Positions 1 to 28,272 of a stretch of DNA of 32,000 nt are shown piece after piece. A program made the position numbers and the translations under genes. Source of the DNA: Promethearchaeota archaeon (GTDB taxonomy: Archaea; Asgardarchaeota; Lokiarchaeia; Sigyniarchaeales; SOKP01); the NCBI GenBank assembly GCA_030606485.1, contig JAUWGH010000004.1:30001-62000 (forward strand), in the 5' to 3' direction. The first letter of the stretch is position 1. Each line of letters opens with the position of its first letter. The notes beneath the pieces were generated by a model. The model saw only the letters and a list, made by a program, of their open reading frames with translations, did not search any database and had not been told where the DNA came from.

Positions 1-370
1 CCTTCTTTTGTTTGGCTCTATAATTTTCTATTGCCTTACGTAATCCATCAGAGGCTAAGTTAGAGCAGTGCATTTTAATGGGGGGAAGACCATCTAATGA
101 ACCTGCAATATCATCTCTTGTTATTTTCATAGCCTCATCTAATGTCTTTCCTTTAGCTAACTCCGTTATCATTGAAGAAGTAGCAATGGCTGCACCACAC
201 CCAAAAGTCTGGAAGGAAATGTCATCAATCCGATCATCCTTTATTTTAATATAAATATACATTAAATCTCCACAAACTGGGTTTCCGACCTCTCCCACAG
301 CATCTGCATCCTTCATTTCTCCCATATTTCGGGGGTTTCTGAAATGATCCATTACTTTTTCTGAATACAT
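1..370 (-). CDS. iscU: Fe-S cluster scaffold IscU/NifU-type (3' end runs off the window; absent from ORF track)
   Basis: Manual translation from ATG at 370: MYSEKVMDHFRNPRNMGEM...GNPVCGDLM...FQTFGCGAAIATSSM...GLPPIKMHCSNLA; three conserved Cys, the Asp after Cys1 and the LPPIK motif are present; 45 bp downstream of iscS. Confidence 0.95.
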   Translation of the reverse strand, partial: MYSEKVMDHFRNPRNMGEMKDADAVGEVGNPVCGDLMYIYIKIKDDRIDDISFQTFGCGAAIATSSMITELAKGKTLDEAMKITRDDIAGSLDGLPPIKMHCSNLASDGLRKAIENYRAKQKK

Positions 371-415
371 TTTATTTATGCCTTATTTTTAATTTTTGAT
401 TAATATTTTTATATT

Positions 416-1654
416 TTAATGGTGGTGGTCAGTTTCGTATGTTGGATCAAACATATATTTTTTCCCCTTTTTTAAGGGGGACATCTTTCTCAATTTTTCG
501 ATAATAGGAGGGAGTTTTTCTAAAAAATAGTCAATATCTGCTTCAGTCGTATATCTTCCCATAGTAATTCTTAATGAACCATGTGCATCTTCAGGTTTTT
601 GACCGATGGCTAATAATACATGAGAAGGTTCTAAAGATTTTGAAGAACACGCCGAACCTGTTGAGGCGGCTATACCTTCCACATCCAAACTTAAAATTAT
701 AGATTCTCCTTCAATATATCTAAACCCTAAATTAACATTGTTTGGTAGACGCTTAGTATAGTGCCCATTAAGATAAACATCTTCAATATTTTCGGTAATT
801 TCCTTTATAATTTTATCTCTAAATTTTATTAATTTTTCAGATTCTTCCTTCATATTCCGTTTGCATAATTCTACTGCTTTTGCAAACCCAGCAATACCTG
901 GAACATTTTCTGTGCTTGACCTCAACCCCCTTTCATGCCCTCCGCCATGTAATAGCGGCTCTATATACTTACCCCACCCTTTTCTTACACCATGTCCCCT
1001 GATATATAATAATCCAACTCCTTTTGGTCCATATAGCTTGTGCCCCGAAGCTGAAAGCAGATCTATATTCATCTCTTCAACATCGATAGGAACTTTTCCA
1101 AAAGTTTGAACAGCGTCAGTATGAAATATAACATCGTGTTTTTTTGCGATTTCTCCAATTTCTTTTATTGGTTCGATTGTTCCTATTTCATTATTTGCAA
1201 ATATTATAGATATCAAAATTGTTTTATTGGTGATGGTCTCTTCCAATTCTTTTAAAACAATCAATCCGAATTCATCTACAGGTAAATAACTCACTTTGAA
1301 CCCTTGTTTTTCCAGATATTGACAAGTGTGTTGGACAGCATGATGTTCAATGCTTGAAGTAATTATATGATTACCACGTCCTTTATTTTTAAAAGCTACC
1401 CCTTTTATTGCTAAATTATCAGATTCGGTGCCAGATGATGTGAAAAAGATTTCATCCTTTTTAGCGTTAATCAATGAAGCCACAGTTTCTCTAGATTTTT
1501 CTAATATTTGAGCTGCATTTTGACCTATTTTATGAAAACTTGATGGATTTCCATAAGTTTCTCTATGATGTTTCTCAATTTCTTTTATAACCTCTGGATC
1601 CATGGGAGTTGTAGCAGCGTAGTCTAAATATACATTTTTCATTTCTACTTTCAC
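416..1654 (-). CDS. iscS: Cysteine desulfurase IscS/NifS (canonical, PLP Lys present); alternative start ATG 1642
   Basis: YLDYAATTP, EHHAV, HTDAVQ, SGHKLYGPKG (Schiff-base Lys), STGSACSS (catalytic Cys). Confidence 0.95.
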   Translation of the reverse strand: MKVEMKNVYLDYAATTPMDPEVIKEIEKHHRETYGNPSSFHKIGQNAAQILEKSRETVASLINAKKDEIFFTSSGTESDNLAIKGVAFKNKGRGNHIITSSIEHHAVQHTCQYLEKQGFKVSYLPVDEFGLIVLKELEETITNKTILISIIFANNEIGTIEPIKEIGEIAKKHDVIFHTDAVQTFGKVPIDVEEMNIDLLSASGHKLYGPKGVGLLYIRGHGVRKGWGKYIEPLLHGGGHERGLRSSTENVPGIAGFAKAVELCKRNMKEESEKLIKFRDKIIKEITENIEDVYLNGHYTKRLPNNVNLGFRYIEGESIILSLDVEGIAASTGSACSSKSLEPSHVLLAIGQKPEDAHGSLRITMGRYTTEADIDYFLEKLPPIIEKLRKMSPLKKGKKYMFDPTYETDHHH

Positions 1655-9160: not shown

Positions 9161-12100
9161 TTATTCTATAACTTCCATCTTAACTCCATGGTGTTCTGGG
9201 ATAGGTTGCGCACCACAAGAGGCTCCCATCCAACACACCAATTGATCTCCCTCTTTATGCATGGGTTTCCCACAATGCATTGGGAGTTCCATTATTTCTC
9301 CACATTCGGGACACTTCAATTTTCCCATAGTTATTTCACTATCTTTTTGTTTAATTTTTTCTTTTATAATTTTACCTTCTTCCTTTTTTATATATTTTTC
9401 TGAGTTATTTTTAAATTCAATTTCACACGATTTATTGCAGAAATAATATTTCTCCCCTTTATATTCATATTCGATTGACTCACTTGGCTTTATTTTCATA
9501 CCACAGACGGGATCAGTAACTAATTCTTTAGATTCAGGTTTTTTATACATTAATTTTGGATCCATATGCTTATAATCCGCATATTTTTCAGGATTAGTTT
9601 TAAACTCTGTCTCACAAGATGAACTGCAGAAGAAAAATTTCTCACCCTTATATTCATACTCAATTGATTGACTTGGAATTATTTCCATTCCGCAAATTGG
9701 ATCGATTGCTTTCTTTTCGATTAATAATTTTTCTTCTTGAATTTGTTGTTCAGTTCGCGGATCGAATCGTTTTAGGAATAATGCATTAGTGACGACCGAA
9801 ACCGAGCTTGACGCCATAAATACAGCGGCCATATATGGTGGTAAGAAAAATCCCGTTAATGCATAAAGTACGCCCGCAGCCATAGGGATTCCTATGATAT
9901 TATAAATAAATGCCCAAAATAAATTGGTTAGCATTTTTCTATATGTTTTTTTAGATAACCTAATTGCCGAGACAACGTTTCTTAAATCTCCTCTCATTAA
10001 AACGATATCTGCAGTCTCAATAGCTACATCAGTTCCGCTTCCTATTGCAATTCCAACATCAGCTTGTGCTAAGGCAGGAGCATCATTTATACCATCTCCA
10101 ACCATTGCAACGATGTTACTTTCATTCAATTCCTGTGTAGATTTTACGGTTTTTGCTTTCTCATTAGGCAAAACCTCTGCATATATATGGTTTTCATCAA
10201 AATCTAATTCCTTTCCTATACTTAAAGCTGTTTGCCTATTATCACCGGTAAGCATATATAGCTGGATCCCCATTTCTCTTAATTCATTAAGGGCATATGA
10301 TGCTTGATCTTTGACTTTATCTGAGATTCCAATGATACCTCTAATTTTACTATCGACACTTAGCAATATGGTAGTTATTCCACTATTTTGTAATTCCTTA
10401 AATTTGTTTTCAAATAGACCTAAACCAATTTTATTATCAAGTATTAATTTTTCATTACCAATCAAAACTTTCAAGTTATCAATTGTTGTTTCAATACCTT
10501 TTCCAGGTACTGCATTAAATTCTTTTGGTTCATTTAAGTCAATCATTTTTTGATTTGCTTCTTCAATAATTGCTTTTGCAATTGTATGTTCTGAGCCCAA
10601 TTCTGCGCTTCCTGCAAAGTGAAGTATTTCTTTTTCAGTAAATCCAACTTTTTTTAATTCCTTTTCCGTTACAATTACAGAAACCTTAGGTTTTCCAATT
10701 GTTAATGTTCCCGTTTTATCAAATATGATATTATTAACATTATTTATTGCTTCTAATGAATCACCACCTTTTACTAATATACCAATCTCTGCTCCTTTTC
10801 CAGTTCCAACCATCACTGCAGTCGGAATTGCTAAACCTAGCGCACATGGACAAGCGATAACAACAACAGAAGTGAAAACTAATAAAGACGTTTCAAGACC
10901 AAGCCCCCCAATAAAAAACCAGAAAAGAAAAGCACCAAGAGCAACAATAATTACTATCGGTACGAAATAATTGCTCACTTTATCAGCTAATTGCTGTTTT
11001 GCTGCTTTTTTACTCTGTGCCTCCTTCACAAAGTCGATAATCTGAAATAATAATGTATCTTTTCCAACCTTTTCCGTCGTCATTTTAATTAACCCAGTTT
11101 GATTAACTGTCGCTCCAATAACCTCATCTCCCAACGTCTTTTTAGCATAAACGCTTTCCCCAGTAATCATTGACTCATCAATTTTTGTTTTTCCTTCGAT
11201 GATTTTTCCATCTACCGGAATTTTCATTCCTGGTTTCACTATTAAAATATCTCCAACCTCAATTTCTTCAATTGGAATTTCTAATTCTTCACCATCCTTT
11301 AAGATTATTGCAGTTTTCGCTTGCAAACCAATTAATTTTTTTATAGCTTCAGATGCCTGACCCTTTGCTTTATGTTCAAGATATTTACCCAATAACAGAA
11401 ATGTCAAAATCATACTCATGGCTTCATAGAATGTCTTACCTGGGATAAAAAATGTGGTCAATATTGAGTATATGTAAGCCGTCCCTGTTCCCAATGAGAC
11501 CAGTACATCCATATTGGTCGATTTATTTTTAAGAGATTTATATGCCCCTATAAGGAAAAAAGATCCTCCAATCGCAAAATTAGTACTTGCTAGGAAAAAT
11601 AAAATTAGTTTAATTGTAAAAGAAGGCTCCACAAACCAACTAATTGGAGTTATAATTAACGAGAGAATAGCAGATGTAATAAATCTATTTAATCTTTTTT
11701 TCTGTTCCTTTTGCTGAACTTCAAATTCCTTGTCAATCACACCAGCGGATTTTTCTATTTTATAACCAAAATTCCTAATTGTAGATATTAATTTTGATTC
11801 ATTTATTTCAAATTCATTAAATTCAAGGAAAACTTTTTTTGCTTGATAATTCCCACGAATCTCATAAATTCCTTTTATATTTTTTGCGTTTTCTATTAAA
11901 TTATCAAAGTTTTTCTCTGAAATATCATCGGTGATTACAACATCAATTCTCGAAAGATTCGCTCGATATCCTAAATTGATTATTGCCTGGCGAAATTTAA
12001 AGAAATCAACTTTGTTTGGACTATATTCTATATTTGCTTCCTCATTAGCAAAATTTACAACAGATTTTTCAACACCATTTAGAGATCTTAATTTATTTTC

Positions 12101-12175
12101 GATTTTAAGCGCGCAATTAGCGCACGTCATTCCCCCAAGTTTAATAATAATTTTTTCTTTCGATTCAAGTTCCAT
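9161..12175 (-). CDS. copA: P1B-1 Cu(I)-exporting ATPase with N-terminal HMA, two C-terminal YHS domains and a Cys/His-rich tail
   Basis: GMTCANC, TGES, CPC, DKTGT, GDGINDAP, YN and MxxSS motifs; two DPxCGM...FCxxxC units; terminal CPEC..HC/C..C..HH domain. Confidence 0.95.
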   Translation of the reverse strand: MELESKEKIIIKLGGMTCANCALKIENKLRSLNGVEKSVVNFANEEANIEYSPNKVDFFKFRQAIINLGYRANLSRIDVVITDDISEKNFDNLIENAKNIKGIYEIRGNYQAKKVFLEFNEFEINESKLISTIRNFGYKIEKSAGVIDKEFEVQQKEQKKRLNRFITSAILSLIITPISWFVEPSFTIKLILFFLASTNFAIGGSFFLIGAYKSLKNKSTNMDVLVSLGTGTAYIYSILTTFFIPGKTFYEAMSMILTFLLLGKYLEHKAKGQASEAIKKLIGLQAKTAIILKDGEELEIPIEEIEVGDILIVKPGMKIPVDGKIIEGKTKIDESMITGESVYAKKTLGDEVIGATVNQTGLIKMTTEKVGKDTLLFQIIDFVKEAQSKKAAKQQLADKVSNYFVPIVIIVALGAFLFWFFIGGLGLETSLLVFTSVVVIACPCALGLAIPTAVMVGTGKGAEIGILVKGGDSLEAINNVNNIIFDKTGTLTIGKPKVSVIVTEKELKKVGFTEKEILHFAGSAELGSEHTIAKAIIEEANQKMIDLNEPKEFNAVPGKGIETTIDNLKVLIGNEKLILDNKIGLGLFENKFKELQNSGITTILLSVDSKIRGIIGISDKVKDQASYALNELREMGIQLYMLTGDNRQTALSIGKELDFDENHIYAEVLPNEKAKTVKSTQELNESNIVAMVGDGINDAPALAQADVGIAIGSGTDVAIETADIVLMRGDLRNVVSAIRLSKKTYRKMLTNLFWAFIYNIIGIPMAAGVLYALTGFFLPPYMAAVFMASSSVSVVTNALFLKRFDPRTEQQIQEEKLLIEKKAIDPICGMEIIPSQSIEYEYKGEKFFFCSSSCETEFKTNPEKYADYKHMDPKLMYKKPESKELVTDPVCGMKIKPSESIEYEYKGEKYYFCNKSCEIEFKNNSEKYIKKEEGKIIKEKIKQKDSEITMGKLKCPECGEIMELPMHCGKPMHKEGDQLVCWMGASCGAQPIPEHHGVKMEVIE
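9392..9703. repeat. Imperfect 123-bp direct repeat (9392-9514 and 9581-9703) encoding the two YHS domains of CopA
   Basis: Shared tracts such as ATATTTTTC...TTGCAGAA...TTATATTCATA...ACTTGG...GGATC; offset 189 bp (63 codons). Confidence 0.85.
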
Positions 12176-14928: not shown

Positions 14929-16203
14929 ATGATATATTTCAAAATTTTAATATTTATAACAGTAATTCTAAAAAAGCAAAATATGAATATTTATAGTATG
15001 AAAGTAATTATTATCGGTAATGGAGTCGCAGGTACATTTTCTGCTCAAAATATTAGAAATATTGATAAAAGCGTAGATATTAAAATAATAACTGAAGAGA
15101 AATATCCGTATTATTCCAGACCCAAATTACCTGAATTTATCTCTGAACAAGTATCAATCAACGATATTATGGTTTTTAGAGAAGATTGGTATAGGAAGAA
15201 AAATATAAAATTAATTTTAGCAAGGAAAGTTTTAGGAATTCATCCAAGACAAAAGCACCTCCTTCTTGAAGATCAAAAAGAATTCATTCAATATGATAAG
15301 TTAATTATTGCAACTGGAAGCAAACCTAATATTCCTCCAATTAAAAACGCAGTTGAACTATTAAAAAAAGGAGTTTTTACTTTACGCAATATTGATGATG
15401 CCATAGAAATACAGAATTATATTAAAGTAAATAATACTAAGAAGGGGATCATAATTGGGGGGGGTTTATTGGGTTTAGAATTGGCAAAACAAATCAAAAA
15501 TTGCAATCTTGACACAACGATAGTTGAATTTTTTCCAAGGCTTTTACCTCGTCAATTAGACGATGAATGCGCAGAGATGTTAAAAGCTGAAATTGAAAAA
15601 ATGGGAATAAAAGTTATATTAAATGCTGCAACTGAGGAAATTTTAGGAGCTGATTCCGTTGAAGGAATAAAGATAAAGAATGGACCTGAAATTAAAGCCG
15701 ATACTGTATTAATTCAAGCAGGAATAAGACCAAGAACCGAGCTAGCAGAAAAAGCAAAAATTCATCAGAATCGAGGTATTATTGTCAATGAATTTTTACA
15801 AACAAGCGATAAAGACATTTTTGCTGTTGGTGATGTGATAGAATACAAATCTCAAACATGGGGGATAATTCCTGCCTGTATTGAGCAATCAAGAATTGTT
15901 GCAGCATCAGTTTTAAATAAAGAAGAGATTCAATATAAAGGAACTACTCCAAAAACCACTCTAAAAATTGTTGGAATTGATTTAACGTCTATAGGAATAT
16001 TTGATCCTTCACAAGAAGAGGATATTGGATGGGAGATTCTAAAAAAAGTTGATCAAGATAATTGCTGCTATCAAAAATTCGTTTTAAAGGATAATAAATT
16101 AAAAGGAGCAATTCTTTTTGGAGAAACAAAATCAATTCCATTTGTAAATAAGAATATAAACTTAAATGTTAATAAAGAAGAGATTAATAAATTATTAGAA
16201 TAA
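14929..16203 (+). CDS. FAD-dependent NAD(P)H oxidoreductase, NADH:rubredoxin oxidoreductase-like (likely start ATG 14998)
   Basis: GNGVAG, ATGS, GGGLLGLE, AVGDV; lacks the BFD/siroheme domains of NirB; a rubredoxin gene lies directly downstream. Confidence 0.85.
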   Translation: MIYFKILIFITVILKKQNMNIYSMKVIIIGNGVAGTFSAQNIRNIDKSVDIKIITEEKYPYYSRPKLPEFISEQVSINDIMVFREDWYRKKNIKLILARKVLGIHPRQKHLLLEDQKEFIQYDKLIIATGSKPNIPPIKNAVELLKKGVFTLRNIDDAIEIQNYIKVNNTKKGIIIGGGLLGLELAKQIKNCNLDTTIVEFFPRLLPRQLDDECAEMLKAEIEKMGIKVILNAATEEILGADSVEGIKIKNGPEIKADTVLIQAGIRPRTELAEKAKIHQNRGIIVNEFLQTSDKDIFAVGDVIEYKSQTWGIIPACIEQSRIVAASVLNKEEIQYKGTTPKTTLKIVGIDLTSIGIFDPSQEEDIGWEILKKVDQDNCCYQKFVLKDNKLKGAILFGETKSIPFVNKNINLNVNKEEINKLLE

Positions 16204-16668: not shown

Positions 16669-18069
16669 ATGGATTTTAATTTAACAGAGGCCCAAAAAGA
16701 ATTACAAAAAAAAACACGGGAATTTGCAATTAAGGAAATCTTGCCAGTAGCAGCTAGTTATGATGAGCATGGAAAATTCCCAATTGAAATTATTGAGAAA
16801 GCTAATAAAGCAGGTTTAGTGAATTTAGTAATTCCAAAAAAATATGGGGGACCTGGTTATGGTCTCTTAGAATCTGTTATAGTTGTTGAGGAAATTGCTG
16901 CGGCTTGTCCCGGGTTCGCAACATCCATATTCGCAAATAATTTAGGAGCAGAACCAATAATTTTAGGAGGAAATGAAGAACAGAAAGATAGAATACTAAG
17001 AGAATTAGTAAAAAAATTTACTTTAATTTCTTTTGCTACCTCTGAACCTGGAATGGGATCTGATGTTGCTGGAATTAAATGTCGAGCTCAAAAAGATGGA
17101 GAAGATTATATTTTAAATGGTACAAAGTATTGGATTACCAATGCAGGTTATGCAAAATATATTTCTCTATTTGCAACAGTGGATCCAGCAAAAAAACATA
17201 AAGGAATATGTGCTTTTATTGTACCAACTGATTTAGAGGGAGTTAAAACAGGAAATCCAATTCCTAAATTGGGGCATAGAGCATCAAATACTACTTCTGT
17301 GGTTTTAAAAAATGTAAGAATTCCAAAAGAAAATGTATTAGCTCCTCCAGGGAGAGGTTTTGTTTTAGCAATGCAAACATTTGCTCATACTCGTCCAGCT
17401 ATAGGAGGTTTTGCTACTGGTTTAGCAAGGTCCGCTATGGAATATGTGATTGATTATGCAAAAAAAAGAGAGACTTTCGGAAGGCCAATAGCAAATTATC
17501 AAGCTATTCAGTTTAAAATTGCTGAAATGTATAAAAATATTGAAGCTAGCCGATTATTAACCTATAAATCAGCATGGGAGACTGATCAAGGGTTAGATAA
17601 TACATTAAGTGCAGCATGTGCAAAAGCATTTGCCTCGGATATTGCTATGCAAGTAACTACTGAAGCTATTCAAATAATGGGGGGATACGGTTATATCAAA
17701 ACATATCCATTTGAAAAATTATTCAGAGATGCAAAACTATTTCAAATTTACGAAGGAACCTCTGAAATCCAAAGAATAATCATTTCAAGATTTGTGATGA
17801 AACAATATAAACATGTAATGCCAAATTTATTTGAACTCCCAAGAATTGAAGTAGAAAGAGAAGAAGAAGTTGAAATTCCATCAGTGTCATTATTGACTAG
17901 TGAGGAACTGGGAGGAAAATACAGATGCACAGTATGTGGATATATTTATGATCCTGTAAAAGGTGATCCAGATAGTGGAATCTCTCCTGGAACTCCATTT
18001 GAAGAAATTTCAGATGATTGGCATTGCCCCATATGTGGAGTTTCTAAAGATAAATTTGTAAAAATATAA
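16669..18069 (+). CDS. Acyl-CoA dehydrogenase fused to a C-terminal rubredoxin domain
   Basis: [44 protein letters not shown] (catalytic Glu); then [13 protein letters not shown]...[11 protein letters not shown] (17917-18069). Confidence 0.93.
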
Positions 18070-18896: not shown

Positions 18897-21002
18897 ATGG
18901 AAAATGATGCTAATAATTTAATTAATGAGAAAAGTCCATATTTACTTCAACATGCTGAAAATCCAGTTAATTGGTATCCATGGGGAGATGAAGCATTTGA
19001 AAAGGCTCGAAAAGAAAATAAACCAATATTCTTATCAATTGGATATTCAACTTGCCATTGGTGTCATGTTATGGCACATGAGTCATTTGAAGATCCAGTA
19101 GTGGCTGAATTAATGAATGAATTATTTGTTTCAATTAAAGTGGACCGAGAAGAGCGGCCTGATATTGACAAGGTCTATATGACTGTTTGTCAAATGATGA
19201 CAGGCCAAGGGGGATGGCCTCTCACTATATTTTTAACTCCTGATAAAAAACCATTTTTTGCTGGAACATATTTTCCTAAAGAAAGGAGATTTGGTCGAAT
19301 AGGTTTAATAGAATTAATTTTAAGAATAAAAGAGCTTTGGAAAACCCAAAAAGATGATATGCTTAGAGCAGCAGATCAAATTGCTTTTTCTTTACAAAAT
19401 TTAGATTTTAAATCGCCCGGAGATAAACTTAACGAAAAAACCATTAAAAAAGCTTATAATCAATTATTGAGTCAATATGATAATAAAAATGGAGGTTTTA
19501 ATAACGCTCCCAAATTTCCTACTCCACATAATCTTCTCTTTCTTTTAAGATTTTGGAAGCGTACTGGAAATAAAGAAGCTTTAGAGATGGTTGAAAATAC
19601 CCTTCAAAAAATGAGGCTTGGTGGTATTTATGATCATATTGGATTTGGTTTTCATCGATATTCTACAGATCCAGTTTGGCTTGTACCCCATTTTGAAAAG
19701 ATGCTCTACGATCAAGCTTTATTGGCAATTGCTTATACAGAAGCTTACCAAGCAACTAAAAAAAATGAATACGCAAATACAGCTAAAGAAATTTTTACTT
19801 ATGTCTTACGTGATATGACTTCACTTGAGGGTGGATTTTATTCAGCTGAGGATGCTGATAGTGAGGGTAAAGAAGGAAAGTTTTATGTATGGACTATTGA
19901 AGAATTCCAACAAATACTTGAAAAGGAAGAAGCAGAATTAGCAAAAACAATATTTAATTTAAAAAATCAAGGAAATTATTTAGTAGAAGCAACTCAAAAG
20001 GATTCAGGTTATAATATATTATTTCTTAAATCATCATTGACCAATCTTGCCAAAGAGTTAAATATTCCCAAACAGGATTTAAGGCATCATGTAGAAAAAA
20101 TTCGTGAAAAATTATTCAAAATTAGAGAAAAACGAATCCACCCTCATAAAGATGATAAGATATTAATTGATTGGAATGGGTTAATGATTGCTGCACTTGT
20201 TAAAGCATCTCAAGCTTTTGATAAATCTTTATATTTAAATGCGGCAAAAAAAGCATTAAATTTTATTCTTTCAAATATGCGGAAACCCAATAATAGATTA
20301 TTACATCGATATAGAGAAGGAGAGGCTCAAATTGATGCTTACTTAAATGATTATATTTTCTTAATATGGGGGGTTATTGAACTATATGAAGCTACTTTTG
20401 ATACTTCTTTTCTTAAAACCGCTCTGGAATTAAATAAAGTTGTAATTGATCATTTCTGGGACGATTACATAGGTGGTTATTTTTTTACGGCCGATGATAG
20501 TGAGATTCTTCTAACTCGTCAGAAAGAGATCTACGATGGAGCAATGCCATCAGGGAATTCCGTTGCTATGTTAAATCTATTAAGATTAAGTTATTTGACA
20601 GGAAATCATGAGTTCGAAGAAAAAGCGAATATTATAAGTAAAGTTTTTGCTGAACGAGTTAATAATTCACCGATTGCGCATACTCAATTAATGGTTGCTG
20701 TTGATTTTAGCGTTGGTCCAACCTATACAATAGTAATTGTTGGTGATGCTGAAGAAATTAATACGCAAGAAATGTTAGCATATATTCATAATCAATTTCT
20801 CCCAAATATAACATTAATTCAGAGAAATATCAAACAGGATCCTCCAGAAATCGATGTATTTATAAATTATATCCATAATTACAATAAAATAGATGATAAA
20901 ACTACTGCCTATATATGTACAAATAAAACTTGTAAACCACCAATAACAGATGTCAATAAATTGTTAAAACTTATTAATCCAAGATGGAATCAAAAGTTAT
21001 GA
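18897..21002 (+). CDS. YyaL/SPATA20-like protein (thioredoxin-like domain plus alpha/alpha-barrel)
   Basis: [66 protein letters not shown]. Confidence 0.92.
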
Positions 21003-22165
21003 ATGGTATTTGGGATGTTAAATCCGATGTTGTGAGAAGAGGAGATAATAATAGAGATGTTTCGCCTTTAACTGGCAAAACAAAAAAGGATGAAAACGGT
21101 TTCACGCATTATGTATTCAGTAAAGTTTTATTTAATAATCCGTGGTATGTCATCCCTGATGATGATATTGAATTATTCAAGAAATTTTTAAATGGAGGTT
21201 CAAGGCATTATCCATCCGATGGAATTATTCCTTGTGATATAGTTGCTAGGGAAACAAAAATAATTTTAAATAAAATAGTAGAAATCGCTAATGACCCTAG
21301 CGATAAATATTATGAAGATGCGCGTAAAGCACTAGAAAATGGTAGATATGCATTAGTTAGAGGGACTTTAAAAATTTATTTAGGCAAATACACTACGAGA
21401 GATTGGAGAAGAAAAAGATTTACTGATGATATTGACTTCTGGATTTACAAAATGGATTTATATGAGTATGTGTTAAAAGAAAATGGTTGGAAAAGGATAT
21501 CAGATACAAAAGAATGGGAAAAACAAATTCAATGGGTTAATCTTATTAGAAATGAAAGGGAAACAAAAATGCTTATTGCAGCAAATGACATAAACTTATT
21601 GTTGGATTTCGGGTCAGGAGCTTATCTTGAAGGTACAAGCCTAAAGGAAATTTTTAGCAAAAAAATAAAAAGAGGTCATGATGTTGACATTAGTGATTTA
21701 ATAAATGTAGCCATGTTTAATGGATTTGATTATAAACATTGCGGAGAGAGGCTTAGAGAAAAAAAGTGGCTTAAAGCTTGGATTGCATTTGAGGAAGCCG
21801 TTAATACAAGAAATACACGAACAACTTCGAATTTGATAAGTCTTTGTCGATATTCGTTAGGAATTGCTGATCACTTAGAAAGGGTTGCAAAATCGATAAA
21901 TAAATATCATTATAAAATTTTTGATAAATCTGAATATCCAGATAACGAATTAGAGATAATATGTAGAATATCAATTCATTGGATTGAATTTCTTTCGTCT
22001 CATGGTCATGATAACACTCGGAAAATGATTCATGATTATTTAATAGAGCAAAGAGATTTTAAATTTCAACACTCAAAAAATCTTAGGACTTTTACTGAAA
22101 AAATACTAAATCTTCTTAATTCTAAATATTCATATTTGAAAATCTTTTTTGAAATTGAAAATTAA
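20984..22165 (+). CDS. Hypothetical protein, probable Pol-beta-superfamily nucleotidyltransferase fold
   Basis: 393-aa ORF overlapping yyaL by 19 nt; RGT...RFTDDIDFW and [13 protein letters not shown] resemble the two signature motifs of AbiEii-like nucleotidyltransferases. Confidence 0.6.
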
Positions 22166-22286: not shown

Positions 22287-23081
22287 TTATTTATCTTCAA
22301 GTAATATTACTTTATCCACAAATAACTCGTAATTATTATCTTCATCGAAATCGTGTATGACAACCTTCTCTACATCGTCAAATCCCCTTACTTCTAGAAG
22401 CTCAGATTGGTATAAAATTTTTACATCAGATATTTTTAATTTTTCTTGTATTTCTGAATTACCAGGAGGAGATTTACTGTAAGTGATTAACACAACTCTT
22501 CCAGTGTATTTTGTTAATTCCAATGCGAGTTTTAAGGAATTGTCTCCGTTATCTACAATTAACACTCTTTCATCGTTAAATTCTGATAAATTATCTACTT
22601 TCTTATAAATACCCTTACCAAGAAACTCATTAAAACCTATGATATTTCTTTCTTCTAATTGACAAGCAGTAATTACATCAACTTCTGGGTTTGCACCGTC
22701 TCTATAATTTCGAATTGCTGCTTGAAGCGCATCAGCTGCCAAATTAGAACAATGCATTTTAATCGGAGGTAATCCCTCGAGTTCATCAGCCACATCAGAT
22801 CTTGTTATTTTATACGCTTCGCTAAGTGTTTTACCCTTTGCCATTTCAGTAATCATAGAAGAAGTCGCTACAGCAGAACCACAACCAAATGTTTTGAACT
22901 TAATATCTTCTATTATTTCCTCGCCTTTTTCGTTTTTGCCGACCTTTATATAAATCCACATAAGATCTCCGCATACTGGATTTCCAACTTTTCCCATACC
23001 ATCTGGAATTTCTATTTCTCCCATGTTTCTTGGGTTTCTAAAGTGATCTAATACTTTTTCAGAATATGCTGTTGATTTCAT
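22287..23081 (-). CDS. iscU: IscU scaffold fused to a degenerate thioredoxin-reductase NAD(P)H-binding-like domain
   Basis: N-terminal about 130 aa: CGD, GCG, LPPIKMHC. C-terminal about 130 aa aligns by eye with the TrxB middle domain (GFNEFLGKGI...VLIVDNGDNSLKLALELTKY...). Confidence 0.85.
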   Translation of the reverse strand: MKSTAYSEKVLDHFRNPRNMGEIEIPDGMGKVGNPVCGDLMWIYIKVGKNEKGEEIIEDIKFKTFGCGSAVATSSMITEMAKGKTLSEAYKITRSDVADELEGLPPIKMHCSNLAADALQAAIRNYRDGANPEVDVITACQLEERNIIGFNEFLGKGIYKKVDNLSEFNDERVLIVDNGDNSLKLALELTKYTGRVVLITYSKSPPGNSEIQEKLKISDVKILYQSELLEVRGFDDVEKVVIHDFDEDNNYELFVDKVILLEDK

Positions 23082-23082
23082 A

Positions 23083-24276
23083 TTATTCTTTTACCTCATT
23101 ATATTGTTTTAATAAATTAGGAGGAGTTAGCGGTGATAATACCCTTAATCTTTTGACTACATTAGGTAAAACCTCCATAACCTTCTCTACATCAGTTTCT
23201 TTTGTGTATCGACCCATTGAGAGAAGTAAACTACCGTGAGCTTCTTCATGTAGCAATCCCATTGCGATAAGTGTGTGGGATGGCTCTAAAGTTTTAGAAC
23301 TGCAAGCAGAACCTGTTGCTGCAGATATATTTTGATCTCTTAATAATAAGATTAATGATTCACCTTCAATATATTCAAATCTAAAATGAGCATTACTGGG
23401 AAGCCTTTTTTCTGGATGACCATTTAAATAAGATTTTGGTATTGACGATAAAATTCCCGAAATGAGCTTATCTCTAAGACGTTTTAAAAAATCTGCCTCT
23501 TGATTTATTTCTTGTTTCATAATTTCAGCTGCTTTACCAAATCCCACAATACCTTGCATATTTTCGGAGCCTGATCTCATACCTCTTTCTTGACCACCTC
23601 CTATAATAATAGGATTCACTCTCACTCCTTTTTTTAAGTATAACGCACCAACACCCCGAGGTCCATAAATATCGTTCGAAGAAAAAGTCATTAAATCTAC
23701 TGGAACTTTTTGCACATCAATAGGAATAACATTTTCAATTGCTACAGCATCTGTGTGAAACAAAATACCTTTTTCTTGTGCTATCTCGCTAATCTCCACT
23801 ATGGGTTGGAGAGATCCTACTTCATTACTAGCAGATGTAATTGAAATTAGAATTGTATTCTCTCTAATTAAACGTTTTAATTTTTCTATATTGATGACAC
23901 CAAATTTATCAACACCAACTCTTGAAACTTCAAAACCTTGTCTTTCTAAGTATTTTCCAAGATTTAATATCGAAATATGCTCAATCTCAGAAATTATAAT
24001 ATGATTTCCCTTTCTTTTTCTATTTAAAGCCGCACCAATTAGTCCTAAATTACTAGCTTCCGTTGCACTAGATGTAAATATTATACTATCTGGACTTGGA
24101 GCATTAATGAAATCAGCAATTTTTTGACGCGATTCTTTTAAGGCATTGGTAGCATCATCTCCATCAAAATGTAGAGATGCGGGATTTGCAAAAATTTTAT
24201 TATAATATGGTCTCATTGCAGATAGAACCCTTGGATCAACTGGTTTAGCTGCTTGATAATCTAAATATACACTCAT
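23083..24276 (-). CDS. iscS: IscS-like protein lacking the PLP Schiff-base lysine (HK->ND)
   Basis: YLDYQAAKP, EHISI, HTDAVA, SSNDIYGPRG, ATGSACSS (Cys kept). Confidence 0.9.
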   Translation of the reverse strand: MSVYLDYQAAKPVDPRVLSAMRPYYNKIFANPASLHFDGDDATNALKESRQKIADFINAPSPDSIIFTSSATEASNLGLIGAALNRKRKGNHIIISEIEHISILNLGKYLERQGFEVSRVGVDKFGVINIEKLKRLIRENTILISITSASNEVGSLQPIVEISEIAQEKGILFHTDAVAIENVIPIDVQKVPVDLMTFSSNDIYGPRGVGALYLKKGVRVNPIIIGGGQERGMRSGSENMQGIVGFGKAAEIMKQEINQEADFLKRLRDKLISGILSSIPKSYLNGHPEKRLPSNAHFRFEYIEGESLILLLRDQNISAATGSACSSKTLEPSHTLIAMGLLHEEAHGSLLLSMGRYTKETDVEKVMEVLPNVVKRLRVLSPLTPPNLLKQYNEVKE

Positions 24277-24336: not shown

Positions 24337-24699
24337 TTAAAACCACATAGTAGCATCTGCTTCTAAAACTAAATCGTTTAGAGTAGCAGCTCCAACAATT
24401 TTTGTTCCTGATATTAATTCAACTTTATCCAATCCTAACATTCTTTTTGAAGCTTCACAAACTAAAATCTCAACACCAGCTTCAAGAGTCTTGTCTAGCA
24501 TTTCTTTCACAGATGGGAATTCTCCTAGTTTTATTCTATTCGCTTCTCCAGGCATCAGTATTCGTAATCCTGTACCTAAATAATATACTTTTGCATCAAT
24601 ATCCATAGCCTTAGCCGTTTGAGCTAAAACTAATGGAGAATATTGTTTTTCAGGATTGTCACTGGTTTGAACATATAATATAAACTTTTTCTCACTCAT
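24337..24699 (-). CDS. DsrE/DsrF-like sulfur-carrier family protein
   Basis: 120 aa; PLVLAQTAKAMD, YYLGTG, GVEILVCEAS (conserved Cys), VGAATL; SD GGAGG. Confidence 0.85.
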   Translation of the reverse strand: MSEKKFILYVQTSDNPEKQYSPLVLAQTAKAMDIDAKVYYLGTGLRILMPGEANRIKLGEFPSVKEMLDKTLEAGVEILVCEASKRMLGLDKVELISGTKIVGAATLNDLVLEADATMWF

Positions 24700-24712: not shown

Positions 24713-24964
24713 TTATTTTATTGGTTTTTTAAAGATAAATATTAAATCATTATCCTCCTTTCTAAAATCTAAGATCTCGGCACCAGTCCTTTTTGCCCAC
24801 CTATGCAAATCTTCATCAGCGGCAGGATCATCTGCTATAACTTTGAAACTTTGACCATCTTCAAGTTTTTCGTATAAATTTCTAACTTCAAATAAGGGTT
24901 CAGGACAATACAATCCTCTTGTATCTAATTTTTCGTCAATTTCTTTATTTTCTTCACTTTTCAT
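24713..24964 (-). CDS. tusA: TusA/SirA-family sulfur carrier
   Basis: LDTRGLYCPEP (CPxP), VIADDPAA...WAKRTG; SD AGGAG. Confidence 0.92.
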   Translation of the reverse strand: MKSEENKEIDEKLDTRGLYCPEPLFEVRNLYEKLEDGQSFKVIADDPAADEDLHRWAKRTGAEILDFRKEDNDLIFIFKKPIK

Positions 24965-25312: not shown

Positions 25313-26320
25313 TTATAATCCTAAATTTTTTAATTTTAATAATAATTCTTTCTGTTCTCCCGTTAATTTTTTGGGAACATTAATTTTTACTTTCACCAAT
25401 AAATCACCTCTTTGATCTGAATTCAATTTATAAAATCCTTGATTTTTTAATCTAAGAGTGGCATAATGTTGAGTTCTTGAAGGAATATTTACATTTAAAG
25501 TGCCCCCATCGATTTTAGGAACTTTAATTTTTCCCCCTAATGTTGCAACTGAGAAAGGTATTTCTTTTTCGATATAGAGATCATTGGTTCTTCTTTCAAA
25601 AATTGTATGATTCTCAATGTGAATTACTATATAAAGGTCGCCATTTGGACCACTATATTCTCCCAGCATACCTTTACCTTTAAGTCTTAATTTCTGATTA
25701 TCATGTACTCCTCTAGGAATTTTTATTGATAGGGTAGTTTTTTTATTAGTAGCAGGATCTATATATTGAACCTTTCTAGTACCCCCATGAAATGCTTCCA
25801 TAAAATTAATTTCCATATCATATCGCAAATCCTCACCTTCTCGAGGGATATTTGGTCTTACCCTTGTTCTTGTACTACCACTTCTTTTATTTGAAAAAAC
25901 ATCAAATATATCTCCTAAATCATTAAAGAAATCGAAATTGGATCCTGAGAATCTCCCCGAACTTCCCATATTTTTGAAAAATTCGCTAAAATCTCTAGGA
26001 TTTCCGGAGCTAGTATATACATAAGTTCCGTCAGGAGTTCTATTAAAATTTGAACGACTACTACCAGGGGTAGATTGATAATATGTTGAGCGATCACCAT
26101 CTACTACTCCAAATTTATCGTACATCTCCCTCTTTTTATCATCGTTCAAGACGCTATAAGCTTCATTAATTTCTTTAAATTTTTCTCCAGATTTTGGTTC
26201 GTCTGGATTTACATCAGGGTGATATTTTCTTGCCATTTTTCGGAAAGCACGTTTTATTTCTTCCTTAGTAGCGCTTTTATCTATTCCTAAAATTTTATAA
26301 TAATTTTTCTTTGGCAGCAT
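25313..26320 (-). CDS. dnaJ: DnaJ-family co-chaperone, type II/CbpA-like (no zinc finger)
   Basis: J domain with HPD, G/S/F-rich region, C-terminal substrate-binding domains, no CxxCxGxG repeats; SD GGGGTGA. Confidence 0.93.
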
Positions 26321-26391
26321 TTTTCACCCCAGCACAGCTCTTAATTTAAAAAAATAAAAAGTTATTTAAAAAAAAAACAAATATTTTTATT

Positions 26392-28272
26392 TTAGGCTTC
26401 TTCATAATCTGTATCTACTATATCATCTTGTCCAGAAGCTTTTCGATATTGTTCAGCTTGTTTTTCATGTTCTGGTCTATCATCTTGCGGTATTCCACAT
26501 GAACCACCAGGATAACCTTTATGAGTCTGATTTTGATCATAAATCCTCGCTGAAACTTGATGTAAAGCAGTTTGTAAATCTTCCATTGCGTTTTTAATCC
26601 TTGAAGGATCTTCTCCTTCATAAGCTCCCTTCAACACTAAAACTTTTTGTTCAATAGTTGTTTTTAAGTCCCCGATTTTATCTTCGTGTTCTTTCATAAT
26701 TTTCTCGGTTTGATATATTAGAGATTCCGCTTGGTTTTTTAAAGATATTAATTCTTTGATTTTCTTATCTTCCTCAGCATATTTCTCGGCTTCTCTGATT
26801 TTTGCATCTATTTCTGATTCAGACATCTTTGTAGAAGCAGTAATAGTAATTCCAGTTTGTTTTCCAGTACCCTTGTCTTTTGCTTTTACATTTAAAATGC
26901 CATTTTCATCGATGTCAAATGTCACCTCTATTTGTGGCACCCCTCTCGGAGCTGGTGGTATCCCAGTTAAATGAAATGTCCCTAAAGTAATATTATCAGC
27001 AGTCATTGGTCTTTCACCTTGAAGTACATGAATTTCAACTGCAGGTTGATTGTCTGACGCTGTCGAAAATACTTCAGTTTTTCTCGTAGGAATTGTCGTA
27101 TTTCTTTCAATTAATTTTGTAAATACTCCTCCCAATGTTTCGACACCCAAAGAGAGTGGCGTGACATCTAAGAGTAATAAATCCTTAACTTCACCAGATA
27201 AAATTCCACCTTGTATTGAAGCACCCAGAGCAACACATTCCATCGGATCAATACCATGTTCTGGAGGCTTTCCAAAAAGTTCTTGGAACTTTTTTTGAAC
27301 GCTAGGCATTCTTGTAGGCCCTCCTACTAACAGAATCTTATCTATACTTGAAGACTGTAAGTTTGCATCGCTTAACGCCCTTTTAATAGATATCTCTAAT
27401 TTTTTTAAAATTGGGCTAATTAAACTCTCAAGTTTGGCTCTGGTTAAGGACATATTTAAATGTTTAGGTCCATTTGCATCCGCAGTAATGTAAGGCAGAT
27501 TTATTTCAGTTGTTAGCGTCGTGGATAACTCAATTTTTCCTTTTTCTGCTGCGTCTCTAATCCTTTCCATTGCTTTAGAATCTTTTCTCACATCAATTCC
27601 TTGTTCCTTTTGAAATTCTGTAGCAATATTATCTACCAAAATTCTATCCATGTCAGTTCCTCCCAATTGAGTATCTCCAGCTGTGGAAATGACTTCAAAT
27701 ACTTTATTTTCCATTTCGAGAATAGTTACATCAAATGTACCTCCTCCTAAATCAAGAACAGCAATTTTAATACTGATATCTTCCTTATCTAAACCATAAG
27801 ATACGGCAGCAGCAGTAGGTTCGTTAATTAATCTTCTTACGTTTAATCCAGCAATTTTACCGGCGTCTTTTGTGGCTTGCCTTTGATTATCGTTAAAATA
27901 TGCAGGTACCGTAATAATAGCTTCACTTACTTCTTCTCCTAAAAAGGCACTCGCATCTTTCTTTATTTTACTTAAGATCATTGCTGAAATTTCTTGCGGA
28001 GAATAATCTTTTCCATCGATTTTAACCTTATAATTCATACCCATTTTTCGTTTAATGGCAGTTATGGTTCTATCTGGATTAGAAATAGCTTGTCTACGAG
28101 CAGGTTCTCCTACTAATCGTTGTCCATCTTTCGTGAAGGCAACTACACTAGGAAAAGCTTTACCTCCAATAGTGAGTCCTTCAGCGCTCGGAATTAATGT
28201 GGGCTTTCCCCCGATTAGTACAGCAGCTGCAGAATTTGAAGTTCCCAAGTCAATTCCAATTATTTTTCCCAT
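26392..28272 (-). CDS. dnaK: Hsp70 chaperone DnaK
   Basis: [47 protein letters not shown]. Confidence 0.98.

Follow-up and report, generated by a model that had tools for sequence, protein, structure and literature searches.

The window analysed here is a stretch of 32,000 nucleotides (nt) from a Promethearchaeota archaeon (contig JAUWGH010000004.1, positions 30,001 to 62,000), AT-rich with a GC content of about 30%. Four closely spaced genes on its minus strand encode TusA, a DsrE-like protein, an IscS-like protein (IscS2) and IscU-X, with a gap of 1 nt between the last two. IscU-X, the subject of this analysis, joins an IscU scaffold to a C-terminal domain that is, in sequence and predicted fold, a homologue of the NAD(P)H domain of flavoproteins of the thioredoxin reductase (TrxR) type, here called the relic domain. 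The features of the cluster, in window positions, are the following:

22287-23081, minus strand: iscU-X, 264 amino acids (aa), IscU plus relic NAD(P)H-like domain, stop codon at 22287-22289 (open reading frame (ORF) list and translation)
22698-23069, minus strand: IscU domain, residues 5-128 (Pfam NifU_N, TIGR03419, Foldseek)
22647-22697, minus strand: flexible linker of 17 aa, residues 129-145 (GANPEVDVITACQLEER), with the Cys140 codon at 22662-22664 (checked in the translation)
22296-22646, minus strand: relic NAD(P)H-like Rossmann domain, residues 146-262, 117 aa (phmmer, TIGR01292, Foldseek)
23083-24276, minus strand: IscS2, IscS-like, without the pyridoxal phosphate (PLP) lysine (Pfam Aminotran_5, 1.1e-73)
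24337-24699, minus strand: DsrE-like sulfur carrier (Pfam DsrE, 1.9e-15)
24713-24964, minus strand: TusA sulfurtransferase (Pfam TusA, 3.6e-20)

The IscU part of the protein is complete. PF01592 (NifU_N) matches at 3.5e-46 (156.9 bits against a cutoff of 22) and TIGR03419 at 192.0 bits against 187.9, and the model of the domain retrieves 7c8m_A (E 2.8e-17, 70% identity) and 4eb5_C (64% identity) from the PDB with Foldseek. The ligand set is intact, comprising C37 and D39 (NPVCGD), C67 (FGCGSA), and H110 and C111 (MHCS); both this set and the chaperone-type LPPIK motif (residues 104-108) are kept across 80 orthologues. Conservation was scored over 80 sequences, namely 79 fused ORFs from related loci plus the window. 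The related loci are the best 80 of 289 genomes with a relative, taken from a scan of one genome per species, and all 80 are Asgard metagenome-assembled genomes. As judged from these motifs, Fe–S cluster assembly is the expected activity of IscU-X, which would act as a scaffold of the MIS (minimal iron–sulfur)/ISC (iron–sulfur cluster) type.

The C-terminal domain gives only sub-threshold matches in Pfam (Pyr_redox, E 0.0055, 17.6 bits against a gathering score of 22). Against the PDB, phmmer finds residues 130-247 of the Thermus thermophilus TrxR-like protein 2zbw (2.6e-7), followed by the Bacillus subtilis ferredoxin–NADP+ reductase (FNR) 3lzw, several TrxRs and AhpF, always at the NADPH domain of the target. 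TIGR01292 (thioredoxin-disulfide reductase) aligns at 4.7e-10, with residues 145-258 on model positions 115-230 of 300, and full-length TrxR-like proteins of about 300 aa match the relic domain at their positions ~115-240. The AlphaFold model of the domain reaches a predicted local distance difference test (pLDDT) value of about 90, and Foldseek places it on the NADPH domain of 2zbw_B (E 9e-11, root mean square deviation 1.8 Å, 124 columns), with similar matches to 3f8d, 3lzw, 2q7v and 4zn0. The original prediction, made from the letters of the sequence, that the last 130 or so residues track the NADPH domain of TrxB is borne out by these searches, and the Foldseek comparison it had proposed returns the Rossmann fold of that domain.

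The motif replacements read in the original prediction also hold in the alignment: the redox CATC has become (K)KVD, the GGGxxA loop (GGGNTA) is DNGDNS, HRR is TYS, and the flavin adenine dinucleotide (FAD) domain is absent. Both halves of the latter are missing, with its N-terminal GxGxxG and C-terminal GD motifs, as is the C-terminal aromatic tail, and there is no Cys at all inside the relic domain. The domain begins and ends exactly at the two crossover strands toward the FAD domain, and the protein stops two residues past the last strand. Measured against the low-Mr thioredoxin reductases of TIGR01292, the NADPH-domain fold is present and the FAD domain, CxxC, GxGxxA and HRR are missing. 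Measured against TrxR-type FNRs, the relic domain is Cys-less and nests among Cys-less family members, but it amounts to only one of the two domains of such an enzyme; the FAD domain, the NADPH site and the aromatic extension are all missing. The relic domain thus most likely binds neither flavin nor NAD(P)H, going by its lost motifs, and alone it cannot be an oxidoreductase. A search of its own genome with the domain profile found no further paralogue at E<=1.

The ancestry of the domain is illuminated by a longer fusion. The profile search found P0247, a 448-aa frame in a closed 3.6-Mb Asgard genome, in which IscU is followed by a linker and an entire TrxR-like flavoprotein. Its FAD domain carries GGGPAG and AAGD and its NAD loop reads GNGDQA, with YYYV at the CxxC and YKEK at the HRR. 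Pfam Pyr_redox_2 is covered in full (1-291/291), the model aligns with whole TrxR structures at template modelling scores of up to 0.88, and the gene stands in a TusA-IscS2(SSND) context. Eleven fused clusters of 447-453 aa are listed, from sources named Jordarchaeaceae. The oxidoreductase part is identical to an entry of Ca. Freyarchaeum deiterrae, where the NCBI annotation gives a 326-aa oxidoreductase only. To judge from its retained motifs, the Jordarchaeial 448-aa form is probably a working flavoprotein. The 448-aa frame starts at TTG (L089:730-2076 / L096:10010-11356). At a further locus (P0173, L100:2-1172), the IscU ORF runs into a TrxR-like ORF, whose NAD loop is degenerate, in a different reading frame. 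Their overlap falls on an A-rich run, and the arrangement may reflect either a frameshift introduced by sequencing or a true split of the gene.

A maximum-likelihood tree was built from NAD domains, including those of 19 relics, six full fusions, P0173 and Cys-less TrxR-like proteins. The relic domains form one clade (100/99) and the full fusions another (100/99); relics, full fusions and P0173 together make up a clade (97/93) that is nested in a Cys-less, FNR-like clade of TrxR-like proteins (99/96). The free-standing Asgard members of the Cys-less clade have GGGD[ST]A, HR[RK] and a PYW tail like TrxR-type FNRs. Relic and full fusion share the signatures RSD-x-K-[IL]L, VEKV and HD-x-x-ED-E-x-[FY]-x-L-x-VD. 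On this position inside the Cys-less clade, a degenerated true TrxB is rejected as the ancestry, and the stripped TrxB of the original prediction gives way to an FNR-like ancestry, with the Jordarchaeial fused flavoprotein as sister. The absence of CxxC is probably ancestral, the losses being those of the FAD domain and the nucleotide motifs, and the relic domain is most likely the remainder of an IscU-fused flavoprotein after loss of its FAD domain. In such flavoproteins the NAD domain interrupts the FAD domain. The most economical history would therefore be one in which IscU was joined once to an entire flavoprotein and both halves of the FAD domain were later deleted, a direction that we infer.

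The fusion is widespread. More than 100 full-length homologues of IscU-X share 69-96% identity with it, under the source names Lokiarchaeota or Promethearchaeota. It is a single open frame in 79 of the 80 species-level loci and also occurs in two closed genomes, each a single contig (4.36 and 6.04 Mb), that belong to the same taxonomic order as the window. An assembly chimera, the concern raised in the original prediction in case the fusion proved unique to this assembly, is thereby ruled out. The domain profile matches 316 of 400 Asgard genomes at E<=1e-8. Those that are strong (E<=1e-40) and lie in frames of ~265-290 aa come mainly from the family of the window (f1, 124/134 at 1e-8), from other families of its order and class, and from family f31; the weaker matches examined are ordinary TrxR-like frames of ~300-340 aa. 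Free-standing copies of the domain were mostly rejected, since most matches of 150-200 aa start at an internal Met of IscU (MHCSNLA...) and are truncated gene calls or contig-edge fragments; P0128, P0129, P0143 and P0148 fall outside that rejection. Altogether, the fusion is found in most Lokiarchaeia, in a second Asgard family (f31) and on one probably bacterial contig.

That contig, of 126 kb and 67% GC, comes from a metagenome and carries TusA-DsrE-IscS2(SSND)-IscU-X (L111:8174-10828) among neighbours of bacterial type, with the Pfam families alpha-2-macroglobulin, NlpC/P60 with PcsB coiled coil, and MetK. It is probably bacterial, judged from the Pfam content of its neighbours alone, and because these families are of bacterial type the whole module has probably crossed between Asgard archaea and bacteria.

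Over the 80 species, IscU has a mean pairwise identity of 0.83, the relic domain one of 0.71 and the linker one of 0.55, values that indicate that the relic domain is under purifying selection. The former nucleotide loop is fixed in Lokiarchaeia as D-[TS]-G-D-x-S (D177 in 79/80, [TSN]178, G179 in 80/80, D180 in 76/80, S182 in 76/80), and the HRR positions read T-S-[AS], with T200 replacing the His in 80/80. The D-x-G-D loop varies in remoter relic lineages (RYNGDES, LYTSEET, VEHGERS, IYKDNKS), so a universal ligand site at the old nucleotide loop is unlikely. Twelve columns are invariant across all lineages: R172, A186, T193, R195, V196, K221, G233, E238, E247, Y251, L253 and D256. K221, E238 and the 247-256 stretch are common to relics and full fusions and are not shared with free TrxR-like proteins.

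Cys140 of the linker is present in 80/80 Loki-type sequences. Several lineages lacking it have a Cys in a short C-terminal tail instead (...PPVCENV, ...NQCADD, ...VSCADE), as in these two examples:

L097:8463-9413, Cys in the C-terminal tail
L098:8591-9457, Cys in the C-terminal tail

Since the N- and C-terminal ends of the relic domain are neighbouring strands, a linker or tail Cys would place a thiol in the same region.

The gene order TusA-(DsrE)-IscS2-IscU-X is also conserved. An IscS-like gene stands directly before iscU-X in all 80 related loci. TusA lies upstream of IscS2 wherever the contig reaches, and additionally in L096-L099, L107, L109 and L111; DsrE is part of the module in about half of the related loci. 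Aligned with the canonical IscS1 of the window, IscS2 has Asp in place of the PLP lysine (SSNDIYGP against SGHKLYGP) and keeps the Cys loop (Cys325, GSAC), the combination that defines the lysine-less IscS of Archaeoglobus fulgidus. SSNDI is found in 68/68 module IscS genes, and the best PDB match of IscS2 is A. fulgidus IscS2 (4eb5_A, 2.9e-135), with an identical SSNDIYGP. The A. fulgidus IscS has no desulfurase activity and is thought to be a scaffold partner that gives a Cys ligand to the [2Fe-2S] cluster on IscU (PMC8918507). By its sequence, the IscS2 of the window is the ortholog of this inactive protein and is predicted to be desulfurase-dead.

A second IscS/IscU pair lies 21 kb from iscU-X (window 2-1654, minus strand):

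416-1654, minus strand: IscS1, canonical, PLP lysine kept (SGHKLYGP), 48% identical to IscS2 in the alignment
2-370, minus strand: IscU1, a short single-domain IscU that crosses the window edge, with an open frame of 134 aa at contig positions 29987-30370

IscU1 is 67% identical to the IscU domain of IscU-X, and two more IscU-like genes are located elsewhere in the same genome (L003, L004). Because the genome also has this short IscU beside IscS1, the fused IscU is the dedicated partner of the dead desulfurase IscS2.

A physical contact between the relic domain and IscS2 is predicted as well. The complex was modelled with the IscS2 dimer (residues 1-385, alignment of 28 orthologues) and the isolated relic domain (own alignment). 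The interaction prediction score from aligned errors (ipSAE) was 0.62 (runs 0.61-0.63), against 0.00 for the best control; this mark is reached by 58/80 solved complexes and 2/110 mismatched pairs, a calibration that is only rough for three chains with their own alignments. The docking runs share at least 91% of their contacts, with a partner pLDDT of at least 86. No solved structure that pairs a TrxR NADPH domain with an IscS is known to us, and the predictor is therefore unlikely to have passed by reproducing a memorised complex. The original prediction had suggested complex modelling with the neighbouring IscS among other candidates, and IscS2 emerges as the only partner with computational support.

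The predicted contacts comprise residues 170, 172, 195, 197, 221, 223, 234, 235, 238 and 251-255 of the relic domain, and residues 121, 124, 132, 135-136, 337-340 and 342-343 of IscS2. Six of the 12 invariant columns, which had been listed before the run, fall in the contact set (R172, R195, K221, E238, Y251 and L253; hypergeometric p = 4e-4), and in the Jordarchaeial full fusion the predicted IscS2-contacting residues are either kept or substituted conservatively. On the other side of the interface, position 342 of IscS2 is Leu or Ile in every domain-bearing lineage, including the Jordarchaeial, f31 and probably bacterial ones. Elsewhere, A. fulgidus IscS2 has Lys there, another lysine-less IscS, whose partner is a short IscU, has Pro, and the lysine-type IscS proteins have Lys, Arg or Pro. 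IscS2 337-343 aligns with residues 340-346 of Escherichia coli IscS, where the substitution R340E weakens the binding of CyaY, IscX, ThiI and, partly, TusA, and leaves IscU binding unaffected (PMC2854127). The CyaY/IscX footprint on E. coli IscS is separate from that of IscU (PMC2854127). The model supports, but does not demonstrate, a docking of the relic domain on IscS2 at the patch that matches E. coli IscS R340.

We give about an even chance to the reading in which the C-terminal relic of IscU-X serves as a non-catalytic clamp or regulator on the dead IscS2, a role suggested by the docking model. The sequence of events would be as follows. A Cys-less TrxR-type (FNR-like) flavoprotein would have been fused to IscU, and in the lineage of the window both FAD halves would have been deleted and the dinucleotide and 2′-phosphate motifs replaced. 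The relic domain, tethered to IscU by the 17-residue flexible linker, would dock on the lysine-less IscS2 at residues ~121-136 and 337-343, just past the Cys loop and apart from the IscU site. In this position it could act as a second anchor for IscU, yielding a constitutive IscS2-IscU assembly scaffold in which Cys325 of IscS2 may be a cluster ligand, and could fill or regulate the accessory site of the frataxin (CyaY)/IscX type. Either the TusA/DsrE carriers encoded in the cluster or sulfide would supply the sulfur. For the ancestral full fusion, this contact would have set the flavin beside the assembly site.

Several points weigh against this clamp or regulator. The docking is predicted only, from the isolated domain and an IscS2 dimer without the IscU domain, each with its own alignment. 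The AlphaFold monomers give no fixed mutual placement of IscU and relic domain (predicted template modelling score 0.48 for the protein of the window, 0.63 for a second model), and linker residues 132-144 have a pLDDT below 50. The lineages behind the covariation at L342 are related to one another, which makes it supportive without being independent, and the E. coli IscS substitution D346R is without effect on any partner (PMC2854127). Furthermore, the acidic hairpin H243-D248, with the invariant E247, and the D-x-G-D-x-S loop lie outside the reported interface; being conserved, they could point to a ligand or a second partner. A contact of hairpin 243-248 with IscS2 was accordingly not borne out, although residues not listed in the interface are merely "uncertain". 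All the support for this protein group is computational.

Some of these same features bear on a reading that we regard as rather unlikely, in which the relic domain keeps a reduced role in electron supply and docks a free ferredoxin or another donor beside the IscU assembly site, in replacement of the FAD domain. The ancestor was a complete flavoprotein fused to IscU, which implies that the fusion once served to deliver electrons to the scaffold. On IscS2, the predicted docking site coincides in part with the footprint of CyaY/IscX, and the conserved acidic hairpin and D-x-G-D-x-S loop would find a use that they otherwise lack. A competition between ferredoxin and CyaY for a groove near the IscS active site is reported in one study (PMC3750173). 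However, no ferredoxin gene is a conserved neighbour of iscU-X in the loci examined, and we would expect an acidic domain to be an unlikely partner for ferredoxins, which are typically acidic.

A ligand or metal site is improbable. The relic domain would here bind a nucleotide or a metal (Fe2+) at the remodelled site or at the hairpin, as a sensor or a frataxin-like iron donor. The fixation of D-[TS]-G-D-x-S within Lokiarchaeia, with T200/S201 fixed at the end of beta-2, and the acidic, conserved H243-D-x-D-E-D, whose E247 is invariant in all lineages, are what such a site might look like. The D-x-G-D loop, however, is not kept in the distant relic lineages, and the Asp in place of the first Gly and the loss of both Arg of HRR argue against NAD(P)H binding.

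We consider it very doubtful that thioredoxin-fold proteins, or a separate reductase, land on the relic domain to act in persulfide reduction on IscU/IscS2 or in cluster hand-off, in imitation of how TrxR offers its NADPH domain to thioredoxin. The relic domain is homologous to the TrxR domain that contacts thioredoxin in the E. coli TrxR–thioredoxin complex (PDB 1F6M), and a YyaL-like gene (DUF255, thioredoxin-like) lies 1.3 kb from iscU-X in the window. However, the adjacency of YyaL is confined to the two closest relatives, the Cys-less branch gives no sign of an ancestral CxxC that engaged thioredoxin, and the invariant residues fall on the predicted IscS2 interface instead. No thioredoxin-fold gene is a conserved neighbour among the 80 species, and neither thioredoxin nor glutaredoxin is found among the conserved neighbours in 57 loci. 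The docking module of the original prediction consequently stands as far as a non-catalytic docking role is the best reading, and its proposed recruitment of thioredoxin-fold partners or of a reductase is speculative and finds no support.

In TrxR-type enzymes the dimer is formed by the FAD domains and not by the NADPH domains, and the invariant surface is already explained by the predicted IscS2 contact, which leaves least room of all for a homo-oligomerisation module that brings two IscU together, for example in the reductive coupling of two [2Fe-2S] into one [4Fe-4S]. Removal of the FAD domain must, all the same, have bared former interdomain surfaces, and IscU dimerisation is described as part of cluster synthesis in other systems (PMC8617193).

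Other neighbouring genes were considered. DnaJ and DnaK are encoded directly upstream of TusA on the same strand (window 25313-28272, minus strand, 348-nt gap); their inclusion as a component of the system is unsupported, the adjacency being confined to the window and its two closest relatives (L005, L006). Pfam gives nothing for a 393-aa ORF (window 20984-22165, plus strand) that runs over the end of the YyaL-like gene and is conserved with YyaL in L005 and L006 only. In 45 of 57 related loci, a gene ~1.3 kb downstream of iscU-X on the same strand encodes a reductase-like protein of 794 aa (for instance L052:7718-10099, plus strand), with Pyr_redox_2, Pyr_redox_dim and TusA domains and a pair of rhodanese domains, a set that resembles a CoA-disulfide or persulfide reductase. 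An obligate partnership with this protein is ruled out by its absence from the genome of the window, where a 29%-identical NROR-like match is all that is found. In 23 loci there is also an HdrD-like CCG/4Fe-4S protein, with rubrerythrin and desulfoferrodoxin genes further on. Elsewhere in the window, an acyl-CoA dehydrogenase with a C-terminal rubredoxin domain adjoins a rubredoxin reductase of the NROR type (Pyr_redox_2 plus Rubredoxin_C; 16669-18069 and 14929-16203, plus strand), and a 1004-aa P-type ATPase (9161-12175, minus strand) carries an HMA domain at its N-terminus and two YHS domains at its C-terminus.

Returning to the clamp or regulator on IscS2, a broader proposal can be put forward tentatively, as a possibility short of an even chance. 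TusA/DsrE, a dead IscS and IscU-X would form a distinct Fe–S unit in Asgard archaea and at least one bacterial lineage, in which the scaffold would at first have borne its own flavoprotein electron donor, as Jordarchaeia still do. In most lineages this donor would have been reduced to a tethered accessory module on the frataxin/IscX/ferredoxin site, and a swinging Cys of linker or tail would take part in sulfur or cluster handling. If this were true, IscS/IscU machines would have a new class of accessory factor, built into the scaffold itself, and a way would open to find out where lysine-less IscS systems get their sulfur and electrons.

No archaea are known to be more closely related to eukaryotes than the Asgard group. 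The series that runs from a free FNR-like flavoprotein, through IscU with a complete flavoprotein, to IscU with the NAD-like domain alone is a clean case of an inserted Rossmann domain that outlived its host catalytic domain. It offers cloneable proteins and point mutants with which to address the entry of electrons and sulfur, the purpose of a dead desulfurase, and a frataxin/IscX site served by an unrelated tethered domain. MIS has been called the least studied Fe–S system in recent reviews, and the workings of the minimal archaeal IscS/IscU are an acknowledged open question (PMC13066941, PMC8918507). This question is sharpest where IscS cannot make persulfide, and the fusion marks a lysine-less IscS2/IscU pair in Lokiarchaeia, f31 and the probably bacterial contig, Jordarchaeia having the form with the complete flavoprotein.

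Among known scaffolds, reviews list single-domain IscU-like and three-domain NifU-like proteins only (PMC13066941). No description of an IscU with the present domain was found in the full-text literature, in agreement with the original prediction that such an appendage had not been described. The elements that are new here are the intact Jordarchaeial flavoprotein fusion, the tree that marks the domain as a relic, the universal linkage to TusA, the predicted docking site on IscS2 together with the invariant residues that match it, and the shifting position of the mobile Cys. Three-domain NifU and the NifU-like MisU also have an N-terminal scaffold of the IscU type with extra assembly domains. 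However, the additions in NifU are a [2Fe-2S] domain of the ferredoxin type in the centre and an Nfu domain at the C-terminus, and neither is present in IscU-X, where Pfam finds NifU_N and a weak Pyr_redox and TIGR02000 aligns at positions 4-123 only.

TrxR-type FNRs (2zbw; B. subtilis YumC, 3lzw; Bacillus cereus FNR2, 6gas) and low-Mr TrxRs have the sequence and fold of the NADPH domain in common with the relic domain, and the FNR group likewise lacks CxxC. Unlike TrxR-type FNRs, the relic domain has neither FAD domain nor aromatic tail, and shows DNGDNS for GxGxxA and TYS for HRR.

The closest solved system is the IscS2-IscU pair of A. fulgidus (4eb5/4eb7/4hvk; MisS/MisU of the MIS type), which resembles the window in its SSNDIYGP IscS, its Cys loop, the adjacency of the two genes and an IscU 64% identical (4eb5_C). 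The solved A. fulgidus IscU chain, in contrast to IscU-X, has 138 residues, aligns to the IscU part only and is without the extra domain, and its IscS has Lys where the fusion-bearing lineages have Leu342. The module of the window also differs in that TusA is always, and DsrE often, co-encoded.

Frataxin (CyaY) and IscX have no kinship with the relic domain in sequence or fold, yet its predicted patch includes their R340 position on E. coli IscS. Unlike them, the relic domain is covalently tethered to IscU and faces a catalytically dead IscS, for which reason the regulation of desulfurase activity cannot be its purpose. Finally, the Jordarchaeial 448-aa fusion shares with the window the same IscU domain, the TusA-IscS2(SSND) context and a sister NAD domain, but differs from IscU-X in keeping both FAD halves and GNGDQA and in having no linker Cys.

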